From contig JANRJA010000151.1 in assembly GCA_033764315.1 (NCBI GenBank), positions 1 through 26,878 on the forward strand: a stretch of DNA of 26,878 bases, read 5' to 3'. The position numbers and the translations under genes were made by a program. Numbering within the stretch: the stretch's first letter is position 1; every line of letters begins with the position of its first letter. This stretch comes from Oculatellaceae cyanobacterium bins.114 (GTDB taxonomy: Bacteria; Cyanobacteriota; Cyanobacteriia; Elainellales; Elainellaceae). Shown piece by piece: positions 478 to 13,640 of this stretch. A model generated the notes under the pieces. It did not search any database. It saw nothing but the letters and a program-made list of their open reading frames with translations, and was not told the DNA's origin.

Positions 478-970
478 GTACGCCCAGCATGGGCGTGATC
501 TGATGGGGTGAAAGTCCCCTGTGGCGAAACCAGCGTCCAAATGAACCCAAAAGTTCCGAGTGACGATAACCACTAGCTTAAGGCAAGGGTGCTTCCGTGA
601 GGAAGGGTCTAGAGGAAGCCAGCGGCAAACCGACGAGCCGACGAACAGAAACGACATAGAAGGCTGAGATCTCCGGGTGAGTTGGCACAACACAACGAAA
701 CCCTTGGTTTAGGAGGCACAGTAAATGGCGCGGTTGCGGCGGGAAAGATCACGTTCTTATCTGGGGAGGTCTGTAAGGCAGCGGTTCAAGCAGCCATGGG
801 AGTCTGATTGAGGTCTATCTGGAAACGGTTAGGAAGCCACAGAACCCTAAAGTAGCAAGAACAGCCCGCCAGGAGGAAACTTCTGACGCTAAGCCTTACA
901 GAAGTCAGCCGAGTCCATAGTAGTTTCGCTGGAAACGAAGGGACGAACATGAACGAAATAAGGAGGAGCG

Positions 971-2305
971 ATGAACAACTCAAACTCATCAATGAACCTG
1001 GATAGGGGAGATGAAGTTTGGCGTGCTGACAGAGAGCCAGCCTTAGTCAACCTGATGGAGCGAATCTTAGAGCGCAACAATGTCTACCAAGCATGGATAC
1101 GAGTAAGGTCAAATCGAGGTGCACCCGGCAGTGACGGGATGCCCTTAGAAGACTTTCCGGACTATGCGAAAGAGCATTGGAGAGAGATCCGCCAATCCCT
1201 GATGGACGGTAGCTACCAACCGCGCCCCGTGCGTCGTGTGGTGATTCCTAAGCCCCACGGCAAGGGAGAGCGAAAACTGGGTGTACCTTGTGTTATCGAC
1301 CGGGTGATCCAGCAAGCCATCTTACAAGTGCTCACGCCCATCTTTGACCCTGGATTTTCCGAGTCAAGTTATGGGTGCCGCCCGAAACGCTCTGCTCATG
1401 GAGCAATCCAGCAGGTGAGAATATTTGTCAAAGCGGGCTATCGGTACGTGGTGGACTTAGATCTAGAAAAATTCTTTGATACGGTCAATCACGACGTGTT
1501 GATGGCTCGTGTGGCTCAAAGAGTCACCGACAAAGTGTTGTTGCGCTTGATTGGACGTTACTTGAGGGCGGGCGTGATGGTCGGCAGCAGCCTGGAGCCA
1601 ACCGAGTTGGGAACCCCGCAAGGATCTCCCCTATCCCCCTTGATGTCCAATATCCTGTTGGATGACCTGGACAAGGAGCTAGAAGCCAGAGGACTGCGGT
1701 TTGCACGTTATGTTGATGACGTGGTGATTCTCGTCAAAAGCAGACGGGCAGGACGACGGGTGATGGTGAAAACTAGCCATTACTTGACTCAGAAGCTGAA
1801 ACTCAAGGTCAATCGTGAGAAAAGCCGAGTGGTTAAGATTGAGGAACTGGAGTACCTGGGATTTACCTTCCGAGGTATTCGGATTTTCGTGAGTGACCGC
1901 GCTATACAGAACTTCAAACACCGACTGCGACAGTTAACCTCGCGCAGTTGGGGAGTTTCAATGGCACAGCGATTCTTACGGTTAAACCGCTACTTGCGAG
2001 GGTGGATGAACTACTTTGGCATTTCCCAGCGTTACAGCCCAATCGAAGAGTTAGACGGGTGGCTGAGGCGACGGATACGAATGTGTTATTGGAAACAGTG
2101 GCGTAAACCGAGGACTCGCATCGGCAATCTGCTCAAACTCGGGACGAGTAAACGTCAGGCGATTTTGACCGGCATTAGTCGTAAAGGTTATTGGCGGTTA
2201 TCAAAAACGCTGGCAACGCATACGGGAATGACCAATGCGTGGCTCGAAGAACAGGGATTGCTATCAATTCGTAAACTCTGGATGAAAGTCCAGGGATACG
2301 CTTAG
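971..2305 (+). CDS. ltrA: group II intron reverse transcriptase/maturase without an endonuclease domain, 444 aa
   Basis: Motifs NRGAPGSDG, RKLGVPCVIDRVIQQA, DLDLEKFFDTV, GTPQGSPLSPL, RYVDD, YLGF and domain X (LRGWMNYF). No C-terminal HNH. Strong RBS AGGAGGAG at 961-968. Confidence 0.97.
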   Translation: MNNSNSSMNLDRGDEVWRADREPALVNLMERILERNNVYQAWIRVRSNRGAPGSDGMPLEDFPDYAKEHWREIRQSLMDGSYQPRPVRRVVIPKPHGKGERKLGVPCVIDRVIQQAILQVLTPIFDPGFSESSYGCRPKRSAHGAIQQVRIFVKAGYRYVVDLDLEKFFDTVNHDVLMARVAQRVTDKVLLRLIGRYLRAGVMVGSSLEPTELGTPQGSPLSPLMSNILLDDLDKELEARGLRFARYVDDVVILVKSRRAGRRVMVKTSHYLTQKLKLKVNREKSRVVKIEELEYLGFTFRGIRIFVSDRAIQNFKHRLRQLTSRSWGVSMAQRFLRLNRYLRGWMNYFGISQRYSPIEELDGWLRRRIRMCYWKQWRKPRTRIGNLLKLGTSKRQAILTGISRKGYWRLSKTLATHTGMTNAWLEEQGLLSIRKLWMKVQGYA

Positions 2306-2335
2306 TTCATCAAGGTTGTTTGCGCGTCTTTATGA

Positions 2336-2404
2336 ACCGCCCATTGCGGACCCGCATGATGGGTGGTGTGGGAGGGGCAGGAGAAACACCTGCCTCGACC
2401 CGAT
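2336..2404 (+). ncRNA. group II ribozyme domains V and VI
   Basis: DV (2336-2367) ACCGCCCAU-UGCG-GACC-CGCA-UG-AUGGGUGGU carries the CGC triad typical of class C. DVI stem GGCAGG/CCUGCC, with a candidate branch A in CGACCCGAU. Confidence 0.92.
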
Positions 2405-2535
2405 TATGCGGCGATCGCAAGGATAAGACCTGTGCGTATCCATTAAGGTACTCAATATTACCCATCGCGTCTCAACCCACTCGCTTGAACACTAAAGGGC
2501 AACCCCCATCACCCATACTTCATGGCATCCCTATT

Positions 2536-4494
2536 TTAGGGGTTAGCTAGTTTGAGGACTTCTTGAGTAAGTTCTTCCAACTCTCTCTGTGTTATGTTTA
2601 TGCCAAGTACCTCAAAGTTTAACCCCTCACCTCCCTCCTTCACTGAACGTTGAAGTCGGCGCACAATCCCTTTGCTTGGCACATCTTTGGGGAGAACACC
2701 GAAGATTTTTGTTCTCAGACCGTTCTTAAGATATACAAGATATTCTAGGTCACCAACAAAGATACTTGGCAATGTGCCGTCTTCAAAAAAGTCGAGGCGC
2801 TCAAGATCTATCCGCGCCTGTCCACCAAGTTCACCGAGTTTATACTCCTTGGCTACCTCTTTCTGGGCGTCCTCTAGCGTTTTATTGAACGGTTTTCCCT
2901 CCTTCAATGCCTGTAGCTTCGCACGCTCAAAGCGTTTTGATGCTATAGACTGAAGACCTGCACGCTCAACCTCGCTCACCTCGTAAATATATTTGAGGTC
3001 CCTTGCACTGGCTTTCCCAGATTTTGCCTCATCAATTGCCAAGATTTCGAGAACACCCTGAATATTCTTAATCTGCTCTGGTGTTCGCTGTCCATACCAC
3101 ACCTGTTGAATATCTTTAGACGGTAACACTCGAGCAACAAGACCATCAGTTAGCTTCCGTTTGTTACTGTCAGTAAGTAAATGACCGGGATAATATTGCA
3201 GTTTAGCTTTTCCCACATCAAGTCCGAGCGCCTTGGAGCCAAACTGCTCCTGCAACAGTCGTACGGTTCTGCTTTCTTTGAATTCTTCGAGCAGCTGACC
3301 TTTCGCCATTGTGACGCTTAAACCTTTCTTTGTAACCCCTGCGTCTGCGACGCGTTTAAGCGCAAAAGAGTCCAGCTCTTTGAGCACTGGCTTTGCAGCT
3401 CCTAATTTACCTAACGCCTCTAGCACAGCCTTCTCGGTAGCTGTAGTAACAGGTGGAACCACGGCAACACCAGCTTTTCCCGTCAATGTAGAAAGAGCCT
3501 TATCTACATCCTTAGCAAGCTGCGCCGGAATCTTCTTTTCTGCCTTGACCAATATTCCAGCCTCACGCAGAACCTTTGCTACTGGAGGTGAGTTGCGCAG
3601 AGCAAACAGCTCGCCTAATTTTATTAACTTCGTCCAATTAGCTCGACCATACATGCGCTCAAGACGCAAAGCGGTGTAAGCACCTTTACCAGCTTTCACA
3701 AAGCGGGAAGCACCTGGTATTAGAACAAAAGTCAATAACATTGCTCGCTCAAAAGTTGATAGCTTTCGACAGAAGAGATCGCGCCCCTCGATTGCTTCAA
3801 CCAGCGACAATGCATTTCCTATATATGGAAGGCATTCTAGTACACCTGCAATCACTTCTGCTGAAAGCGGCGTATCTGGTACATCAAACTGAGTAACCTT
3901 TGCTCCCTGACTGGATGCAAGGCGCAGCGCATACACAATATCCTGCCTTTCTTCCAAAACCGTCGCCAGTCCAACGATCGCAGAATTTTTGTAGAACTCA
4001 GGATCATACCTGTGTTCTGCCATATAAGCTTGAACCGCTTTAATAAACTCATTTTTCACTGACTGAACAAGCGTTATCTCCTCTTTGAGGAGATAACGCT
4101 CTTCGACAAAATAAACTGCATCACACTTACCAGAGGTATGTGCTCTCACGTTCAACGTCTCAAGACGTTTTGTGACGGCTTCCATGTATTCCCTATCCTT
4201 TTGCAGGATCTGAGCTTCCGTAGGTTCATACTTCCGTAGATCTTTGTCTGCACGCTTCGCTGCATCTATTTGCCAAAGGTCGGGGCCTCTAGTTCCTGGC
4301 TGTCTTTGAGAGCGAAACTCCCAGATGTTAATGATGTCAGATGGACGGAGCCGCAGATCTTCCTCCATCAAAGCTAGTGTTTGGCGTAGAAGCGTAATGG
4401 CATATGCAGATTCGGTTCCACTAGATAGGGCAGCAAACAATCTATCTCGTACTTCTTCCACACAGCGTCGGTAATCGTTGAGTGTACTGCCCAC
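2536..4494 (-). CDS. putative polymorphic-toxin-like effector: pre-toxin TG-like segment plus C-terminal restriction-endonuclease-fold-like region, 652 aa
   Basis: aa ~212-270 (LPYIGNALSLVEAIEGRDLFCRKLSTFER...IPG) resembles PT-TG. KGQLLEE(403), TDG(450), DEAKSG(489-491) and GGQARIDLERL fit a PD-(D/E)xK order. GTG start with AGGAG upstream. The ORF is secure; the function is inferred. Confidence 0.6.
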   Translation of the reverse strand: MGSTLNDYRRCVEEVRDRLFAALSSGTESAYAITLLRQTLALMEEDLRLRPSDIINIWEFRSQRQPGTRGPDLWQIDAAKRADKDLRKYEPTEAQILQKDREYMEAVTKRLETLNVRAHTSGKCDAVYFVEERYLLKEEITLVQSVKNEFIKAVQAYMAEHRYDPEFYKNSAIVGLATVLEERQDIVYALRLASSQGAKVTQFDVPDTPLSAEVIAGVLECLPYIGNALSLVEAIEGRDLFCRKLSTFERAMLLTFVLIPGASRFVKAGKGAYTALRLERMYGRANWTKLIKLGELFALRNSPPVAKVLREAGILVKAEKKIPAQLAKDVDKALSTLTGKAGVAVVPPVTTATEKAVLEALGKLGAAKPVLKELDSFALKRVADAGVTKKGLSVTMAKGQLLEEFKESRTVRLLQEQFGSKALGLDVGKAKLQYYPGHLLTDSNKRKLTDGLVARVLPSKDIQQVWYGQRTPEQIKNIQGVLEILAIDEAKSGKASARDLKYIYEVSEVERAGLQSIASKRFERAKLQALKEGKPFNKTLEDAQKEVAKEYKLGELGGQARIDLERLDFFEDGTLPSIFVGDLEYLVYLKNGLRTKIFGVLPKDVPSKGIVRRLQRSVKEGGEGLNFEVLGINITQRELEELTQEVLKLANP

Positions 4495-4539
4495 CCTTTT
4501 TGTTCTCCTAGCAACCGCTAAATTAATACATATGGCATT

Positions 4540-7500
4540 TCAAGTGAACGATGGGAGCGCGTCATCTTTCTGCAACCATACTAGCGTCGTAGGTACTGTA
4601 AATTCCCAAGACTCACCTTCAGGAGTTGCACCCGACAAATCATCAGTTTTATTCTTAAACTCCTCTGCAATGGAAATGAAAAGTGGATCATTTAGTCGTG
4701 GTGGTTCACCACCCTGCCAGATCTTCTTGTTAATATCCTTCTCCTGAGACTCAAGAAAGTACAGGATTGAATCATTGTAAGCAGGTGAAACTGGCACAAT
4801 AACGCGCGCCGCACCTGCTTGCAGAAATTGAGTAAAAGATGGATCAGGATCGTAATCGTTGCTTAGTTCAACCCACTTACTCTTACGTGTCCAGAAGTAG
4901 GGATAAAAGAGATAAGTGATTTGCTCCCATTCAAAGGCTTGTTCAAAGAACTGAATATATCTTCCCTCATCTAATGCCTCAAAAACATTTACCTCTGGAA
5001 GGTTCTTGGGTTGATCTGGTGGAGCAGTCATAGCATCAAATGAATTAAAATGCTGCCCAGTTAGCATGGTAAGGCAAAGCTTTTTCAGTTCTCGTTTCTC
5101 AATTTCTCGATTTATATCGGGATTTCTGCCTTCAATTACAACTCCAACCGCTTGAGACTTCGCTTGTGCTACCTTCTGATCGTAAGCCGTCTGAAGTGCT
5201 TTGTAGGCTGTATAAATCTTGTCAAAAGTCTGCATCTGCCATTTCTTAAGCTTCTCATCAGTACACTTGCAGATTGCTACTACATTTACTACATAAGCAA
5301 CGATATCATAACCAACTATACTAATAGGCAATACGCCACTTGTCTTGGATAAGGCATCTCCCACAAGCTGACCTCGAACATATTGTCTACCGTCAAAACC
5401 ATCAGGATGATTCGCGTTCTCTAAAGAGTATTGATCATTGCCAATCTGAATACTAAGCTGAGGGTGAAATTTCCAGATTGCCGAAATTTTTGCGCTGTAA
5501 TAATCAAGAGTGTACCCTTCAGGTATAGTGAGGTCCTTAACTGCTTTTGCAAACGTTTTTCCTAGTTCAAGCCCACCTTGTTCAAAAGCTATGCCTACAT
5601 TGACAGATAATGGTGGTGGAGGTTCAACCCCAGATGCATTATATCGACTAGCAAAGGTTTCATATGTGTTTATATCAATATCTGTAGATGTAATAGGAGA
5701 ACGGTCTAATTTTAGGAATGGCTCTGGTGGTTTTTCATCAATAACTTGTTCAGTAGCTTTAATCTGAGATGCTCTGTAATAAGCAGATGGCTCTGGTACA
5801 ACGAATTCCAGCATCATTCGCCTACCATAATTATAGACTTGGGCTCGATACTTCTTATTAACCCACCGGTAAATGCCAACTACATTATCATCGCCATCTT
5901 TATTATCAAGTCCATGCGTGTTGCTTTCCTCTATTTCTTTAATGGTTTTTGTTGTCCGCTCTGTCTTAACACGCTTCTGAATTTTAGTAACCGATCGATC
6001 AACAACATCACGGGCAAAATTTGCACTATTCTTTATTGACTCTTGCTTTGAGGTGGAATAGGCAAAATCACCATGCGCTGTAATAGTCACAGTTCCATAA
6101 CTACCAGTAGCAGTGACACCTGCTTGGACACTCATATCTTCTTTGAGCGTTTTCTCTGCTTCTTTTTTGAGTTCAAATCTATCAGTTGTTTGAGTGTCCC
6201 GTTCTGTTTCTTGATTATCCTCTTCAGATGTAAATAATATGCTCTCTGTTCGATCAAGAGTGCGATGTTTTCGTTCCTTTGATTCCCCTTTTAATACATT
6301 TTCAATATGTGCAACTTCCCCTGGTACATAAGCAAGAAGCTTCTCTTTTACAACTTTAAGATCTCCAATACCAAGTGGTCGTATACGTCCACTCACATCA
6401 ACATCAGGTACATCTTCAACTACATCAAAGTCTCGATCTAGAAGATCGTTTGGAGAGAAGATAGCTAGCAATGGATTGTTTCTTGGAAAACCCCTGACAA
6501 TCCTACGAAAATCAGGATTGTCACGTAGAGCATAAGCCTGTCTTGTCAAGGCAGTAGTATGATTCTGAAGTTTTTGTATAGCATTAGGGACACTAGTGGA
6601 ATCGTTGATTCCAAGTTTAGCCAAAATTTGATTTGTATTTTCAGCCATCGAATCTGTCAATACAGTCTGAAATCGAGGTATCGAAGATAGAAAAGCATCA
6701 TTACGAGATCCCTGCTGTTCATCGCTTGTTAATGGTGTTTCACTCTGAGATATTTCTGGTTGAAACAACTCTGGAGTATTAATTCCTTCTTCCAACAAAA
6801 GCTGTGTAGAAATAATCTCCTGCATAAGGTTCTGCATAGAAATTTCTGCTTCCCCAGTAGTCTGGGTTTGAGCTAAGGAAATAACTTCTGTGGAACCTTC
6901 TGTATCCGGTCTCTCATCAGCTATTTCGTAAAATAGCTTTGCAATAACTGGTGTAGCCGTAAGTGCAGTTAGTGCATCTTCACGGCTATCTAGCATACCT
7001 TCCGCTGCTAATGAAGCAAAATGAAGTGCACGAAGCGCAACCGTCGGAATTTCAATCCTTTGAGCCGCATCGGTGCCAGTCTTGAAGCCAATGTAAAGCG
7101 CATCCCAAGCAAGCTCTTGCAATGTCTTAATACGATCTTCACTAGGGCGTGCCAACTCAGTTTGAGCTAGCATTGCTTTCGCTGTAGGTATGTTCTTTTT
7201 ATCTGTCGAAGTTTCAAAGCAATCACGGGCTTTTTCATAAACTTCAACAAGAGGTTCTAAAGGTTTAAGATCAAGTTGAGTAAATTGTTCTTTAGCCTCT
7301 TCAGAATTAACGAGAGAACGTGAAAGCTGAGTTAGATAATTAAGTCCCTCAGAGTTTTGCTCACGTTGGTCACGAATAAAATTTCGTTGAACAGTTTTTT
7401 CGGAAATGAGTTGTGTAGGTCGAACGGCTACGAACTTAAATACATCTAGCTTATTGTCTCGCTCTGTCAAACGGACTTCAACATCAGCTTCTAAGTTTTC

Positions 7501-7608
7501 CGGAATGTCTCTCATCTTTATTGAGCCTCTTAAGCTTTGGTATAAGGCAACACCACTTAAGGCTGTTGCTAGCGTCCCTAAACCTATAGCAATGTCGAAT
7601 TCGCTCAT
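4540..7608 (-). CDS. large hypothetical protein, candidate beta-pore-forming or translocase component, 1022 aa
   Basis: Long intact ORF. aa 492-517 alternate hydrophobic and small polar residues around a GT turn, flanked by T/E/K/R-rich segments. Hydrophobic N-terminus at aa 6-23. Function is inferred. Confidence 0.55.
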   Translation of the reverse strand: MSEFDIAIGLGTLATALSGVALYQSLRGSIKMRDIPENLEADVEVRLTERDNKLDVFKFVAVRPTQLISEKTVQRNFIRDQREQNSEGLNYLTQLSRSLVNSEEAKEQFTQLDLKPLEPLVEVYEKARDCFETSTDKKNIPTAKAMLAQTELARPSEDRIKTLQELAWDALYIGFKTGTDAAQRIEIPTVALRALHFASLAAEGMLDSREDALTALTATPVIAKLFYEIADERPDTEGSTEVISLAQTQTTGEAEISMQNLMQEIISTQLLLEEGINTPELFQPEISQSETPLTSDEQQGSRNDAFLSSIPRFQTVLTDSMAENTNQILAKLGINDSTSVPNAIQKLQNHTTALTRQAYALRDNPDFRRIVRGFPRNNPLLAIFSPNDLLDRDFDVVEDVPDVDVSGRIRPLGIGDLKVVKEKLLAYVPGEVAHIENVLKGESKERKHRTLDRTESILFTSEEDNQETERDTQTTDRFELKKEAEKTLKEDMSVQAGVTATGSYGTVTITAHGDFAYSTSKQESIKNSANFARDVVDRSVTKIQKRVKTERTTKTIKEIEESNTHGLDNKDGDDNVVGIYRWVNKKYRAQVYNYGRRMMLEFVVPEPSAYYRASQIKATEQVIDEKPPEPFLKLDRSPITSTDIDINTYETFASRYNASGVEPPPPLSVNVGIAFEQGGLELGKTFAKAVKDLTIPEGYTLDYYSAKISAIWKFHPQLSIQIGNDQYSLENANHPDGFDGRQYVRGQLVGDALSKTSGVLPISIVGYDIVAYVVNVVAICKCTDEKLKKWQMQTFDKIYTAYKALQTAYDQKVAQAKSQAVGVVIEGRNPDINREIEKRELKKLCLTMLTGQHFNSFDAMTAPPDQPKNLPEVNVFEALDEGRYIQFFEQAFEWEQITYLFYPYFWTRKSKWVELSNDYDPDPSFTQFLQAGAARVIVPVSPAYNDSILYFLESQEKDINKKIWQGGEPPRLNDPLFISIAEEFKNKTDDLSGATPEGESWEFTVPTTLVWLQKDDALPSFT

Positions 7609-7785
7609 AAGTCCTTACATCTATTGTCTCAACCCATTGAGTACGAACTATGAATATTTCAGAGAAAGGCTTTAAGCGATAAGTTCTCCCAACTTGATCG
7701 CATTAACTTATCTAAAAATAAATTTCACGTTAACCCTACGCAATCAATTTAGTCAATTGCAGGATAGCAATCTTCACAATCAAGC

Positions 7786-7861
7786 CCTAACTTAGAACTC
7801 AAAGCTACCTCTTACAGATAACCTCTTACTACGTCTTAACCCAAGATTTGAGCCGCATAAC
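7786..7861 (-). repeat. degenerate cassette-leader repeat, copy 2, ending in GTTATGC (minus strand)
   Basis: Colinear with 338-402 (shared blocks listed there), with about 11 nt extra. Lies upstream of the 1022-aa gene. Confidence 0.75.
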
Positions 7862-7969
7862 TATTCTTAGACAGAAAGTTTCCGCCTAAGATCCCAAAAC
7901 CGGTGGATAGGCAAAAGGATTCAGCATAACAACCCCAATTTACTACTTATATAGATTATTTCCGCATAA
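7850..7969. other. cluster of tyrosine-recombinase-like sites
   Basis: GAGCCGCATAA-CTATTC-TTAGACAGAAA (7850-7877) has 11-6-11 geometry. Related arms are TTAGGCGGAAA (minus, 7889-7879) and TTATGCGGAAA (minus, 7969-7959). A second GCATAAC lies at 7924-7930. Confidence 0.45.
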
Positions 7970-8106
7970 TACGCCGTTTAAGCTGATTCGCAAGAATCGT
8001 TCTGCCTATTTTTAGATTCCTTACGGAGATACACTGCACCTTTATGATTGTCCACCACCTAAAGTCCAAGCTTATACCTATTGGCTTATCAATATGCCAT
8101 AAAGCC

Positions 8107-8156
8107 CAACAGGTAAGCCTGCGGTCACGCCTACACTAAGGACTAAGCAAATTAAC
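8107..8156 (-). repeat. degenerate cassette-leader repeat, copy 3 (most diverged)
   Basis: Ungapped 50-nt alignment to 353-402, from CARCAGGTAAGC to a final TAAC in the same register. Confidence 0.6.
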
Positions 8157-8230
8157 GGTTGTGTTTGTAAGTGCTGTTTGTATTACTCGAATGGGATTGA
8201 TCTTCTGTCGATCGCTCTTTAACCCCGATC

Positions 8231-11200
8231 TCATCCTTTGCCAACTCCAATGCTATAACGCAGAGTTTCTTCCTGGCGTTTGACAGCGGCTAACAGTTCA
8301 GCATTTTGCAAAATGACCCCTGCTTGATTGTTAAAGATCTGCATGTATTTCTGATCGCTGTGATCAAAGCTGGCACGAAAACAGAGGGGAATCGTCTGAT
8401 CGTCGGTAGGTTCATCTATCATTTCGGGCGATCGCCGCTTATTAATCAGTTGCGTCACGCCAATCAGTTCACCATCAGGGTTCAACACAGGCATACACAA
8501 CAGGCTATAGGTGCGATAACCGCTGCGTTGATCGGTGTTGCGGGCGGTTTCTGAGTCGGGGTGCTCATAGAGATCAAAGGGAATGTTGATGGGTTTTCCA
8601 GTTTCTGCAACTTTGCCTGCATAGCCTTCGCCAATTCGGAGGCGAATTTCTTTTTCGCTGCCGTTATCAAAGGGAATCCTCGTCCATAACTCGTTAGTGT
8701 AGCGATCGCACAACCACAACGTACTGCGATCGGCTTGCATCAATTCTTTTGCCGCTTGCATCACCCGTCTTAAGATTTCATCGGGTTCTAAGCTACTCTG
8801 GCTGACCGATCGCGTTGCTGCCATCAATGCAGCGGCAACCCGCTGCCCTCTAGCGGTTTTGTGATAGGAACAGAAGCTCTCCAAAATCATCCGAATCAGC
8901 GGCGCATTGGCGACAAATTGTTGTTCGTCAGCGGCAGTAAAGCCTTGGCGATCAACCCGCTCGGCTAAGGGCAAGGCAGAGTCACTGGTTCGTTGAAGTT
9001 TGTTGAGCAATTGCACGACTGCAATTAACTCTCCCCGTTCGTTTAACAGTGGCATTGCCAACATGGTGTAAGTGCGATAGTGATTGCGCTGGTCTTGTTC
9101 TTTGGCCGTTTTAGAGCGGGGGTCATCATAGAAGTCGTAGGGAATGTTGATGATCTGTTTAGAGTGCGCCACTTCTCCTACGATGCCTTTGTTCGCGGGA
9201 ATGCGAATTTCGAGGGGGCGATCGCTGTTTTCAGACTCTGCCACGATTGACCAAAACTCTTCTCGCTCTTCATCCAACAAGAAAATAGTGGTGCGATCGG
9301 CGCACAGAGATTTGCCAATTTTGAGCGTGATCGATCGCAACGTGGTGTCCAAAATATCGTCAAAGCCCTGGTTATCCATCACCTGGCTCAACATCCCCAA
9401 GGTCTGCAACACTACACTTTGGGGTTGGTTTTCGGCTTGTCGCTTCATCTCGGCAAACTGTCGGGCGTTTTGCAGTGCCACCCCCACCTGAGCGTTAAAA
9501 ATCTGCATATATTTCTGACTGCTAGCATCAAAACTCGCCTTAAAGCAATCAGGAGCTTCGGGCCACGTCGCTGGGTCATATTCTGGAAATTCTCCTTGGC
9601 GGCGTTTATTCACCAACTGAGTAACACCGAGCAGTGCCCCATCTGGACTCCAAACCGGCATACAGAGCAAACTACAGGTGCGGTAGCCCGTTCTTCGGTC
9701 AGTTTGACGAGCCGTTTCTGAGTCGGGGTGGTCATAGAGATCAAAAGGAATATTCAAGGGTTCTCTTGACTCAGCAACCATACCTGCAAAGCCTTGCCCC
9801 ACGTTAATCCGAATTTCTTGCATCAGCCCATTCTCAAACTGCACTTTAGTCCACAGTTGGTGATTGTCTTGATCCAACAACCAGAGAGTGCTGCGATCGG
9901 CATTCATCAGTTTTTTGGCGGCTTCCATCACGCGCCGAATGATCTCTTCCGAGTCTAAACTGCTCTGTGACACCGATCGCGTTGCTTCAGTTAAGGCTTC
10001 TGATGCTTGCAGGCGTTGAGTCAGACGATAACAATCTTGACAGCGGGCGAGAATGCGCGAAATGGCAGGAGCATATTCCTCTAACTGCGTTTGATCGGCG
10101 TCCGTAAACCCTTGTGGGTTGATGCGTTCTCGCAGGGACGCACTGGGATTATTCGATCGCTTTAACTTGTTAAATAACTGGATAAATGCCACTAGATTGT
10201 GATGTTCGCTCGACAGGGGCACCACCAATTCGCTATAGACCCGATAGCGAGTTGCCGCAGGTGAGTTTTCCTCTGCTTCTAGTCGTTCATCCCGAAAGTT
10301 AAACGGAGAGTTCACTAAGTTTCTAAAGTTGGTCAACTGTCCGCCACTGCCCTTGTTCGCGATCACCTGAATCTCTGGCGAATTGCCCGCTTCATGTCGT
10401 GCAATGACTGACCAGATATCGTTTTTCTCCTCATCTACAAAAAAGATGGTAGTGCGATCGACACTCAATAGTTCTCCCAGGCGCAACGTAATGGAACCCA
10501 GAATTTGATACAAAATGTCGGCAAAGTCTTTGCCTTCCATCACGTTTAACATCGAGAGCAGTTTTTGTTCTTGAGTCGTCACCACTTGCATGAAATCGGC
10601 TTTTAGATCAAACAGTGTTTTTTGTACCCACTGCTGATTAAAAACAGCCGCATAAATTCGATTTGAGATCTGTAATTTTCCAGCCCGTTTAATGACTAAT
10701 CCTGATAGGCGTAACTCAATTTGTTCAGGGGCGTCAGAGGCTTCTACTTCACCCCGTCGCCAAATATTGTGATATAGGTCGAGTAAGGCGCGACTGCGTT
10801 GTCCAATTCGCAAGAGGCGATCGCGAATCGTTTTTAAGTGAGGCGGTTCGTCGGTGGCCTCCCAATTGTCGATCAAGTGCGATCGCACTAATCCCTCTAT
10901 CCACTCCGTTTCCTGTCCTGTAGGGATCATTAACTCAGAAGTATAGATCAATTGACAAATCTTTTGAGTGAGAAACGGTTGACCCTCTGTCCACTCTAAA
11001 ATGGCTTTTAAAACAGCTTGAGGATTACTTGTTTTAGACTGCAACCCGATCGCCAGCGGTTGTACTTCTGAGAGTTGAAATCCATTCAACTCGATCGCAC
11101 GACCAATATTAAACGGAGTGCAATTTTTGTTTTGAATGAGATCAGACGGTGTAGACACACCCAACAATGCAAAGGTGAGTTGTTCGTATTCATTACACGC

Positions 11201-11674
11201 TCGAATGAAGGCAAAAAAATCATCAGTGCGAAAGTTGAGACTTAACATGCTGTCAATTTCATCAATGAAAATGACAATGGGTTTATGCACTGAAGTCAAC
11301 AACACTTCTTCGATAAATTCGCTCAACCGTTGCACTGGTGGCAAAAAATCGCGATCGCGCAACCACGATTGCAGATCAATTGGCAAATGAAAGCTTTTAA
11401 CTAAACGCCGCATTAACCCGGCATACCACTGGTCTGGGGTGATCTCTTGACTACCAATTTTGGTCAGATCAATGGCGGCCCCAGCCACACCTTCGGCTTG
11501 TAGACGATGCATCGTTCTTACTCGCAGACTGGTCTTACCCATTTGCCGCGAGTTCAACACATAACAAAACTCTCCCGATTTTAAACCTTCATATAACGCA
11601 CGGTCTGCCTCTCGCACCACATAGCTGGGCGCGTCTAGAGGCAAATGTCCACCAACCTTGTAGGTATATGTCAT
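8231..11674 (-). CDS. AAA_35-type NTPase fused to four GAF domains (two CyaB2-like tandems), no output domain, 1147 aa
   Basis: Walker A SRQMGKTS, Walker [16 protein letters not shown] and GQPFLTQK. Four GAF repeats each carry DRT/DRS and QLxNK...F motifs. Confidence 0.9.
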
Positions 11675-11693: not shown

Positions 11694-13640
11694 TTAAACG
11701 TCAGAGTGACCAATGCGATCGCTAAAGTAGTGTTGATACAGTTGAGACCGAGGTGTGACTTCATTGCCTTGCAATTGCACCAGCCCTAAACTATGTAACT
11801 TAAACGCCAAAATCGATGCTAGTTCTACAGGTTGGCGGCTCGTCACCACTCGTTGAAAGGCGGTTGCCAGTTCTGGGTGGTGTTGCAAGTTCCACAGATG
11901 TCGTCGCAGGTGATCGCCATAGATCCCTGCTTCAGTAGGGGCGGTTTCAATCAGTTGGGGTAATGTCAATTGCTGTTGAGCGATGTGATAAAGTGCCAAT
12001 CGCACCAGGTAGGGATGTCCACCAACAATCTGCATCAACTGCTGCACCTGATCTGCTTGCCAGTTTAAGGCATGTCTCCAGGCCAGGTTAGTCACCTGTT
12101 CTGGGCTAAATTCTGATAACTCAATGGGCAACCCAACGTTAAACGGCGACTGATTAACATCCAGTGGAATATAAACTTCGGTAGAGTGCACCACAATCAG
12201 ACGCAATTTCTCCCACAAGCCGCTGTCACTATCTCCGTAACCCGCTTCCTCATACCACGCCCGCAACAAGCCAAAAAAGTCATCGGCAATTTTGGGATAT
12301 TGAAACACCCGATCCACTTCATCTAATGCCAATACCAGGGGTTGATCAATCTCAGACAACAAACAGTCCTCAAAATAAGCCGTACAGTTGTCTTTGCTGC
12401 CGTAAGTGTCTGACCAATATTGATCGACCGCGTGAGACAGATGTAACTTGCGGGTCACGCGGGTACAAAGCCATTGCAATAGTTGATCCAAGCTCTCAAA
12501 TACGGCTCTATCAGCATGTTGAAAACTGAGTGGCACAGTGCGATACCCTTGCTCACGCGCTTGATGCAAAATCCTCGACATCAGAGACGTTTTGCCCATT
12601 TGTCGAGGTGCTTTAATCCGAATCAATGTTCCCGGTTGCACAATCTCTCGATAACATTGGGCTTCATAGGGCGATCGCTCCACATAAAATTGCGAATCTA
12701 ACCGCACCTGCCCTTGCGGTAGCTCTGGATCGGCAATAGGCGAGGGAGTTGGCAACAAGGACGACGGATCGAGAACCGTCAGAGGTTGCAGAGACTTTGG
12801 AGATGGGCTATTCAGTACCCTTTTTTCAGGGACAACGGCTCCCTCAAGAGAGTTATCTCGCATCGCTGCATTGCCATGAATCACATCTACAATCGCTTGA
12901 ATCACCAACGGGCTATCTAACGGCGATTGCCAAACCCACTGATGCACATGACTCAAGTAATTCTGTAGATCATGATTTAGCGGCATCTCTGGCGGACAGT
13001 TGACTTGAATCGGCAGAATAATCGGGTGATAGCGATGGCTTTTGCTTTGCAACTCTTTGACACGTCGCAACTCTTCTAACACCATCTCACTCACGGCGGC
13101 TTGAGGAGACAGCAACAGGATAAAAAAATCACACCGTGCCAGACAAGCATCAATGTGGGTCAGCCACTCTCGATCAGATTTGGCGTAGGAAGTTGGAATA
13201 ACTCCTGTATCCACCGTGAGAATGTGGTGTCCTGCCGCCGCGATCGCCTCACATAAGTCATGGGCTAAACAGCGATCGGGTTCCTGACTGCGATGACTCA
13301 CAAAGATTTGTTTAATAGCCTGATCAGGCGGTTTTTCAAGTCGCGTCAGTTCCTCTGAAAAAACAGCAACAGAAGATTGCATTTGCCGTTGACATGTTCT
13401 TTCTAAGGCTCCCCGAAATTGTTTTTTAGTAACCTTTTCTCCCAACACTGTTGACAACTTTTGCCACAATTTATAGCCCACATATTTTTCAACATACTCC
13501 GGGTTATTGGGATAAATCTCTTCATAGGTTTGACCCTGCCAAGACCCGATAAAAACATCCCGCTCTAAATTACTGAGATGCTTTCCAGTCTGGTCATAAA
13601 TCAAACCATCCACAAACTCCAATGCTGTTTTAGCATCCAT
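11694..13640 (-). CDS. N-terminal HTH-like domain + TIR domain + AAA_35-type NTPase, 648 aa
   Basis: HTH-like region GSWQGQTYEEI...LWQKLSTVLGEKVTK. TIR motifs IFVSHRS, CDFFILLLSP and SEMVLEEL. NTPase motifs [24 protein letters not shown] and GGHPYL. Only 19 bp separate it from the next gene. Confidence 0.9.
   Translation of the reverse strand: MDAKTALEFVDGLIYDQTGKHLSNLERDVFIGSWQGQTYEEIYPNNPEYVEKYVGYKLWQKLSTVLGEKVTKKQFRGALERTCQRQMQSSVAVFSEELTRLEKPPDQAIKQIFVSHRSQEPDRCLAHDLCEAIAAAGHHILTVDTGVIPTSYAKSDREWLTHIDACLARCDFFILLLSPQAAVSEMVLEELRRVKELQSKSHRYHPIILPIQVNCPPEMPLNHDLQNYLSHVHQWVWQSPLDSPLVIQAIVDVIHGNAAMRDNSLEGAVVPEKRVLNSPSPKSLQPLTVLDPSSLLPTPSPIADPELPQGQVRLDSQFYVERSPYEAQCYREIVQPGTLIRIKAPRQMGKTSLMSRILHQAREQGYRTVPLSFQHADRAVFESLDQLLQWLCTRVTRKLHLSHAVDQYWSDTYGSKDNCTAYFEDCLLSEIDQPLVLALDEVDRVFQYPKIADDFFGLLRAWYEEAGYGDSDSGLWEKLRLIVVHSTEVYIPLDVNQSPFNVGLPIELSEFSPEQVTNLAWRHALNWQADQVQQLMQIVGGHPYLVRLALYHIAQQQLTLPQLIETAPTEAGIYGDHLRRHLWNLQHHPELATAFQRVVTSRQPVELASILAFKLHSLGLVQLQGNEVTPRSQLYQHYFSDRIGHSDV

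Follow-up and report, generated by a model that had tools for sequence, protein, structure and literature searches.

A conserved large gene followed by exchangeable toxin-like genes: a candidate two-gene toxin cassette in a cyanobacterial genome

In the contig JANRJA010000151.1 of Oculatellaceae cyanobacterium bins.114, a stretch of 26,878 nucleotides henceforth called the window, two co-oriented genes (gene A and gene B) fill positions 2536-7608 of the minus strand with a spacer of 45 bp between them. Gene A encodes a large protein of an unnamed family, and gene B a protein with a pre-toxin TG (PT-TG) domain and a toxin-like C-terminal tip. Relatives of gene A are regularly followed by a gene on the same strand, and the identity of this second gene is exchanged across the family, the gene logic being that of a conflict cassette with exchangeable effectors. 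Our preferred explanation, which we advance tentatively and place somewhat short of an even chance, is that A and B form a horizontally acquired, outward-directed toxin cassette of two genes, in which a conserved, membrane-acting protein A is combined with an exchangeable toxic payload, here B.

A conserved gene beside rotating toxic enzymes is a hallmark of conflict systems. The A family occurs in hundreds of genomes, is unnamed, has neither domain annotation nor structural relative and is tied to at least a dozen toxic enzyme families. We found no description of the family, or of its pairing with swappable effectors, in the literature, the supplementary tables of PMC13483458 and PMC8213781 aside. 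If A is the vehicle or the trigger of these enzymes, cells would have a hitherto unrecognised means of releasing toxins or of killing themselves.

A conserved gene with changing partners

Relatives of gene A make up at least 347 protein clusters, every one labelled 'hypothetical'. They were confirmed in 255 stretches of one-genome-per-species contigs and occur in 15 plasmid records, among them a Bacillus thuringiensis plasmid and a haloarchaeal plasmid; a search of 50,697 phage records yielded none. The hosts belong to the Actinomycetota, Pseudomonadota, Bacteroidota, Bacillota, Cyanobacteriota, Chloroflexota and Acidobacteriota, and one is a haloarchaeon. We counted the genes that follow A in the 80 loci kept from our genome scan. 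An open reading frame (ORF) on the same strand starts between -120 and +250 bp from the A stop codon in 73 of the 80 loci, a partner ORF of at least 200 residues lies directly behind A in 66, and in 43 of these 66 its start falls within -10 to +30 bp of the A stop. The partner ORFs were called mechanically from the first start codon, which in high-GC DNA may not be the true one, and at 12 of the starts the overlap with A exceeds 10 bp. The survey of A neighbourhoods proposed in the original prediction, an earlier reading of this DNA from its sequence alone, thus brings out a recurrent downstream partner, which is hypervariable: the 73 partner ORFs fall into 32 BLAST clusters.

The partners are also rich in enzymes. 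A Pfam search of the 66 partners detected PT-TG (10 partners), patatin (8), PAD (7), M23 (5), amine oxidase, PLD and Het-C (2 each) and LodA, CdiA_C and Amidase_3/SPOR (1 each), and none carries the eCIS_core domain. No Pfam family was detected in 13 of the 27 cluster representatives scanned; if A is the vehicle or the trigger, it would provide a handle on many such uncharacterised effector families.

The association between A and B is equally apparent from the side of B. In the genome loci A immediately precedes each of the ten B relatives, as it does all four full-length relatives on metagenome contigs, and a Paenibacillus A-B pair has adjacent locus tags; a fifth metagenome locus contains a partial match to the tip domain only (27% identity) and no A. 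Homologues of the two genes therefore co-occur whichever of them serves as the anchor, and the refutation named in advance, that they do not, is excluded.

Payloads are swapped along the A lineage. We built a quick FastTree phylogeny of A from alignment columns 407-1018 (71 rows, leaving out ten loci with an A ORF shorter than 900 residues), on which the payload label changes 16 times over 47 labelled rows. Its well-supported branches force at least three independent associations with B-type payloads, at least four with patatin, at least three with PAD and at least four with Het-C-like payloads. The patatin domain begins at partner residue 17 and the LodA domain at residue 10; with enzymatic domains at the very N-terminus of several partners, the payloads have no common leader. 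Nor did we find a shared N-terminal adaptor, as a hidden Markov model (HMM) of the B N-terminus matches B's own family only, while an HMM of the PT-TG region of B (residues 206-300) also matches the partners at loci L013 and L066/L067. No common C-terminal tag is visible on the payloads, and the variable N-terminal third of A does not track payload type.

Several individual loci illustrate the range of the family. On a Natronorubrum bangense plasmid (L082, 4297-9352) an A-like gene, annotated as a product of 1147 residues plus a piece of 71 residues with a possible frameshift, is followed directly by a gene for a patatin-like phospholipase. This haloarchaeal megaplasmid pair indicates that the module crosses the divide between bacteria and archaea. 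On plasmid p01 of B. thuringiensis HD-771 (L081, 6980-11031) an A homologue of 967 residues overlaps a 383-residue hypothetical partner by 4 bp, in the neighbourhood of helix-turn-helix (HTH), DUF6037, DUF6018, DUF6094 and DEAD/DEAH helicase genes, and the A protein cluster of this locus is reported on 84 contigs. The partners at L001, L006 and L027 form one family, are 385-387 residues long, have no Pfam match and contain, towards the C-terminus, a strongly hydrophobic stretch at about residues 300-311 (Kyte-Doolittle 19-residue mean 2.6-2.8), which would suit a membrane-disrupting effector. Finally, one cyanobacterial metagenome-assembled genome (L023, L056) harbors two identical A genes on separate contigs: one is followed by an intact PAD-domain gene of 951 residues, while behind the other the PAD-like frame lies in pieces of 76, 269 and 207 residues.

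The two proteins of the cassette

Full-length relatives of B are 46-63% identical to it from end to end, which supports the GTG start used here over the 549-residue product called in the database. The PT-TG-like segment read from the sequence in the original prediction matches PF14449 at 30 bits, above the cut-off of 23.5, and at 35.1 bits when the genome was searched. PT-TG is the only Pfam domain in B, and the trafficking domains LXG, WXG, Rhs, VgrG, FHA and eCIS_core gave no match. The Pandoomain survey (PMC13483458), whose polymorphic-toxin proteins include 'PT-TG singletons' and 'PT-TG toxins', describes in its text PT-TG proteins that lack a trafficking domain, the 'PT-TG singletons', which occur in monoderm and diderm phyla and whose trafficking is unknown. 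By that description B is a new member of this class, sharing the PT-TG domain, the absence of a recognisable trafficking domain and an unannotated C-terminal module. What differs is the conserved partner gene that precedes it, for which the text of that study, its supplementary tables aside, mentions no counterpart. If A is the vehicle or the trigger, it would answer how PT-TG proteins without known trafficking domains, as described there, are deployed in monoderm and diderm bacteria.

The C-terminal domain of B is most likely a PD-(D/E)xK nuclease, and as such a putative DNase, as judged from a motif series that the original prediction had already pointed out. In all 19 sequences of an alignment that extends down to 24% identity, D450, G451, K491, G493, Q559, E565 and R566 are unchanged; at position 489 a single sequence has D and the other 18 have E. 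In an AlphaFold2 model of B (mean predicted local distance difference test score, pLDDT, 71; both A and B were modelled at full length) the N-terminal half is helical, the PT-TG region comes next, and the C-terminal domain has the order helix 394-415, strands 432-436, 451-456 and 478-488, and helix 508-532. Consecutive predicted strands of this alpha-beta-beta-beta-alpha arrangement carry the D...(D/E)xK signature. The domain has no Pfam match (E<=10), no profile match in the Protein Data Bank (PDB) and nothing significant by Foldseek. In the VIA alignments of B residues 343-652, the chains listed along most of the region are all restriction-endonuclease-fold nucleases, bar a few short helical matches, and the tip matches in the ESM Atlas are Nuc_N (0.76) and Tox-REase-3 (0.75), both below the level that counts.

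The tip of B is also found on other toxins. A profile of the C-terminal domain searched against 1.84 billion representatives retrieved 257 protein clusters at E<=1e-3, and of the 150 listed representatives with a complete copy of the domain, nearly all have it as their C-terminal tip, P0235 and P0260 being the exceptions. About 40 of 148 new representatives share the architecture of B itself. Another group of about 35 are proteins of 800-1500 residues, and six of the eight scanned among these begin with eCIS_core (DUF4157). According to the text of Geller et al., 2021 (PMC8213781), toxins associated with extracellular contractile injection systems (eCIS) combine an N-terminal DUF4157 with a C-terminal toxin, and many of them have no immunity gene. 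As the B tip ends eCIS_core proteins in this known layout, we conclude that it is a mobile toxin module. The likeness to the eCIS-associated toxins of that text extends to the C-terminal module, common to B and to six of the eight long eCIS_core proteins, and to the frequent lack of an immunity gene; unlike those toxins, B and the 66 partners have no eCIS_core, and no eCIS genes flank the pair. In three of the long eCIS_core proteins (P0177, P0189 and P0268) an Ntox1 or ApoL-like module stands just before the B-type tip, making them double-headed toxins. The source genome itself encodes one eCIS_core (DUF4157) domain, in an 860-residue frame on another contig (C75, 9323-9553; L085) that is unlinked to the cassette.

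Protein A, by contrast with the wide distribution of its family, resembles nothing that has been named. It has no Pfam family (E<=0.1), one marginal VCBS match in NCBIfam (E 0.007), an E of 0.041 in PHROGs and a best E of 0.034 in the PDB (phmmer or profile), and matches only 'hypothetical' clusters in the ESM Atlas. Neither A nor B matches any of the 5027 models of PADLOC-DB v2.0.0, a library of 2023, at E<=0.1. We found no fused A forms of at least 1790 residues, which is weak evidence. The start of A is ambiguous: the ATG at 7608 has AAGGA just upstream, while a TTG at 7470 fits the starts of the homologues, which begin near residue 47. With the ATG, A gains 46 residues, a hydrophobic stretch included, that the homologues do not have. 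The model of A (pLDDT 67) shows five regions, namely a helical N-terminal third, long strands, a beta-sandwich (668-782), a long helical hairpin and an alpha/beta C-terminal domain. The long strands are four in number, are predicted to have 17-29 residues (411-437, 442-458, 551-567 and 577-605) and flank a low-confidence segment. Identity to 70 homologues is 42-75% in this core region (407-620), which contains many invariant charged residues, versus 11-31% in the N-terminal third.

Within the core lies the amphipathic hairpin (residues 492-518) that the original prediction had singled out, and its alternation is conserved across the family. In 71 sequences alternate positions are hydrophobic in 80-100% of the members, except for the Ala/Gly positions 502 and 513, and the intervening positions are Ser, Thr, Gly or polar, with an Ala-rich position 516 as the exception. 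Two arms of 13 residues surround a G505-(P/T)506 turn, with predicted strands at 497-501 and 508-512, inside predicted strands of 27 residues. Beta-pore-forming toxins of the aerolysin and alpha-haemolysin type characteristically have an alternating hairpin, rich in Ser and Thr, between very long strands. A is like these toxins in having such a hairpin between long strands; it differs from them in that it has no structural or sequence match to them, is three times larger and has no signal peptide. Fold searches with the A model, in which the original prediction had expected a pore-forming fold, returned nothing above noise; no chain of the protective antigen (PA) family was listed, although fold searches alone are not decisive here. 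Pore formation by A, suggested by the conserved hairpin and by no fold match, is unproven.

A complex prediction for A (residues 401-1022) together with B (residues 1-300) gave no answer (score 0.00) and speaks neither for nor against binding. Two Legionella species, L. anisa and L. parisiensis (L072 and L074; 6956-9908), carry the A family as two overlapping ORFs of about 350 and 642 residues; the second spans only the conserved A residues 408-1019, and no effector-like ORF lies directly behind it. These may be split or decaying copies.

Possible roles of the cassette

The pair stands without an immunity gene or secretion signals. There is no minus-strand ORF of at least 60 residues between the B stop codon and position 2305, and no conserved ORF follows B in nine genome loci; the gene found 5 bp past B at L088 is convergent and encodes a peptidase, and at L090 no same-strand ORF of at least 50 residues occurs for about 870 bp behind B. 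A homologues start directly at the conserved region and have no signal peptide. A hydrophobic, Sec-like N-terminus is lacking in 65 of the 66 partners by hydropathy inspection rather than by a dedicated predictor, and the exception looks like an unrelated lipoprotein. We found no third conserved gene around A, the best neighbour cluster being present in only five loci at scattered positions, and no secretion system or eCIS genes beside the pair. The 107 flanking genes from 63 loci are mostly housekeeping genes, and the matches to defence models among them are a handful of mostly generic ones (HTH, TPR, RtcR and DndA/SspA-like).

Our preferred explanation, the outward-directed toxin cassette, would work as follows. 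A and B would be co-produced from one transcript, and A would oligomerise through its conserved beta-hairpin core and put the amphipathic hairpin into a membrane, thereby releasing or translocating the toxic enzyme encoded behind it against competitors or grazers. The producer cells would be sacrificed or perforated, with the payload made only in cells committed to lysis or held inactive, which would explain why neither an immunity gene nor a secretion signal is needed. We favour it on account of the payload families and the eCIS toxin connection, both of which are typical of weapons for export. One parallel is found in colicin operons, which combine a generic lysis gene with variable cytotoxic proteins that lack export signals and whose producer cell is sacrificed. 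Colicin lysis proteins are lipoproteins of about 50 residues encoded after the toxin and immunity genes. The likeness thus lies in a conserved release function, as proposed for A, together with variable toxins without export signals; the differences are that A has about 970 residues, lies upstream of the toxin and is accompanied by no immunity gene. In a more far-reaching form, which we consider possible but doubtful, the A family would be a single-protein, envelope-independent machine that self-assembles by its hairpin core, breaches a membrane and exports or unleashes the encoded enzyme, and would constitute a new class of toxin deployment or programmed cell death that has spread by horizontal transfer through more than a dozen bacterial phyla and haloarchaea. 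Such a machine would explain the trafficking of the widespread 'PT-TG singleton' toxins, as the text of PMC13483458 portrays them.

Several observations weigh against a cassette of this kind. Since the payloads have no common tag and the N-terminus of A does not track them, specific recognition of a cargo by A is unsupported, and in the absence of Sec signals and of an accompanying secretion system the proteins have no evident way to reach another cell. An intracellular role would accommodate the occurrence in an archaeon and across all bacterial envelope types no less readily. For a lipid-facing stem, the hairpin and the charged residues beside it are unusually conserved, and the hairpin may be an ordinary element of the core or of an interface. 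The nuclease fold matches of B, for their part, all remain below the level reached by chance arrangements.

An abortive-infection or defence cassette is in our view only a little less probable than the outward-directed toxin. A would then be an intracellular sensor or executioner, possibly perforating its own membrane from inside, and the downstream gene a swappable suicide effector that stays silent until phage infection triggers A. What earns this alternative its standing is the lack of signals, secretion systems and immunity genes, the latter behind B both in the window and at related loci, the archaeal occurrence and the TIR/STAND neighbours, as TIR-AAA_35 and AAA_35-GAF proteins are encoded next to the pair in the window. 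The pair moreover stands alone whatever the bacterial envelope type, and also in a haloarchaeon; its distribution is patchy and horizontally transferred, and on the B. thuringiensis plasmid it has helicase, HTH and DUF genes beside it. Patatin, PLD and restriction endonuclease-type effectors are also typical of defence systems. CBASS, Lamassu and Avs place a conserved component beside exchangeable patatin, nuclease or other killing modules and have a patchy, horizontal distribution. The A-partner cassette is like them in its conserved component, exchangeable effectors and patchy spread, but A has no recognisable nucleotide-signalling, NTPase or sensor domain, and the effectors linked to it include families typical of exported toxins. 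Indeed, PT-TG, CdiA_C, LodA, M23 and Het-C, along with a tip common to eCIS_core proteins, point to toxins against other cells. Neither protein has a PADLOC match, the flanking genes give few and mostly generic defence matches, and phage records contain no copy, all of which tells against defence.

The remaining alternatives are less probable. A might be a generic inhibitor, chaperone or cage that keeps the downstream enzyme inactive and replaces an immunity gene, which would suit the absence of a cognate immunity gene across the family, the tight or overlapping gene spacing suggestive of co-translation, and the large size and charged, highly conserved, interface-like core of A. We consider this improbable, because a single conserved protein would hardly be able to neutralise a dozen enzyme folds that are unrelated to one another, the payloads share no tag and the variable region of A does not co-vary with payload type. 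The original prediction had compared A and B to anthrax toxin. In binary AB toxins (anthrax PA and lethal factor, C2, iota, Vip1/Vip2) a large component with an amphipathic beta-hairpin acts with a separate enzyme, and A would accordingly be secreted, form a heptameric prepore like that of PA, bind B and translocate it into eukaryotic cells. The pair does show a large hairpin-bearing component, with an amphipathic hairpin of the right length within long strands, and a separate enzymatic partner. However, A has no match to Binary_toxB or any other Pfam family and no similarity to PA-family structures or a known pore-forming fold, the A homologues and B lack signal peptides, and the partner enzymes are non-homologous with no common docking domain; the family is found in non-pathogens of many phyla and in an archaeon. 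An AB toxin of this type is therefore very unlikely, and the comparison with anthrax toxin is not supported, while the functional pair, the toxin-like B and the missing immunity gene of the same prediction stand. Least credible of all is an incidental adjacency of A and B, or an array of integron cassettes that ends in an attC site, for which nothing speaks except that a hairpin near 2410 had been read in this way. Across phyla the pairing is met again from either anchor, and the same payload families have been recruited repeatedly.

Layout, origin and neighbours of the locus

The pair looks horizontally acquired. The HIP1 octamer GCGATCGC is present in 28 copies in the window versus 0.22 expected from shuffles, and, in line with the HIP1-free block described in the original prediction, positions 2419-8427 contain none; when the sites are placed at random, the largest gap reaches this size in 2.4% of cases. 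GC content is 0.39-0.42 over 4.5-8 kb versus about 0.45-0.50 in the rest of the window. No relative of gene A was found in 40 related cyanobacterial genomes, which share the genus (1), family (23) or class (16) of the source, and in the source genome A and B are each single-copy. It is this HIP1-free, low-GC block, together with the absence of A from the 40 genomes searched, that suggests acquisition from elsewhere. The features of the locus are compiled in the table.

Table. Coordinates of the A-B cassette and adjoining features in the window
Feature	Position	Strand	Remarks
Group II intron reverse transcriptase (RT)/maturase ORF, intact	971-2305	plus	
Terminator-like hairpin just past the B stop	2497..2514	minus	consensus match only
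Gene B, 652 aa, GTG start	2536..4494	minus	homologues align from residue 1-5
B C-terminal toxin domain, residues 393-652	2539..3318	minus	motif, secondary structure, weak nuclease-only fold matches
Putative catalytic D450 (3145-3147) and E489-x-K491 (3022-3030)	3022..3147	minus	conserved in three alignments
PT-TG (pre-toxin TG) domain, B residues 213-270	3685..3858	minus	PF14449, E 5e-7
Spacer A-B	4495..4539	minus	45 bp
Gene A, 1022 aa, ATG	4540..7608	minus	unnamed widespread family, homologues about 950-1010 aa
A core, residues 407-620	5749..6390	minus	most conserved; very long beta-hairpins predicted, low-confidence middle
A amphipathic Ser/Thr/Gly-rich beta-hairpin, residues 492-518	6055..6135	minus	alternation kept in 71 sequences
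Upstream non-coding region	7609..8230	minus	622 bp, inside the HIP1-free block

The promoter of the cassette presumably lies within the non-coding region upstream of A, where a single sigma-70-like match (7993-7966) scores no higher than shuffles. Downstream of B, the structure ending near 2410 had been taken for an attC site that leaves too little space for an immunity ORF. The lack of such an ORF is borne out, but the attC is not: Rfam and the RT/maturase ORF identify the structure as the 3' end of a group II intron, and no search was made for an integron integrase. The intron (591-2410, plus strand) lies tail-to-tail with gene B, with Rfam matches to its D1-D4 region at 591-755 and 865-943 and a HIP1 site at 2411, after its 3' end. 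Between 300 and 2560 the Rfam scan (E<=1) returned intron families only. A GC-rich inverted repeat at about 409-462 lies a short distance upstream of the apparent intron start.

On its upstream side the cassette adjoins two tandem genes for AAA_35 (STAND-like) proteins on the minus strand (8231-11674 and 11694-13640). One of the two encodes four GAF domains, and the other an N-terminal TIR_2 domain (E 1.6e-10) with a faint ThsB-like match. These tandem genes may constitute a separate signalling or defence pair.

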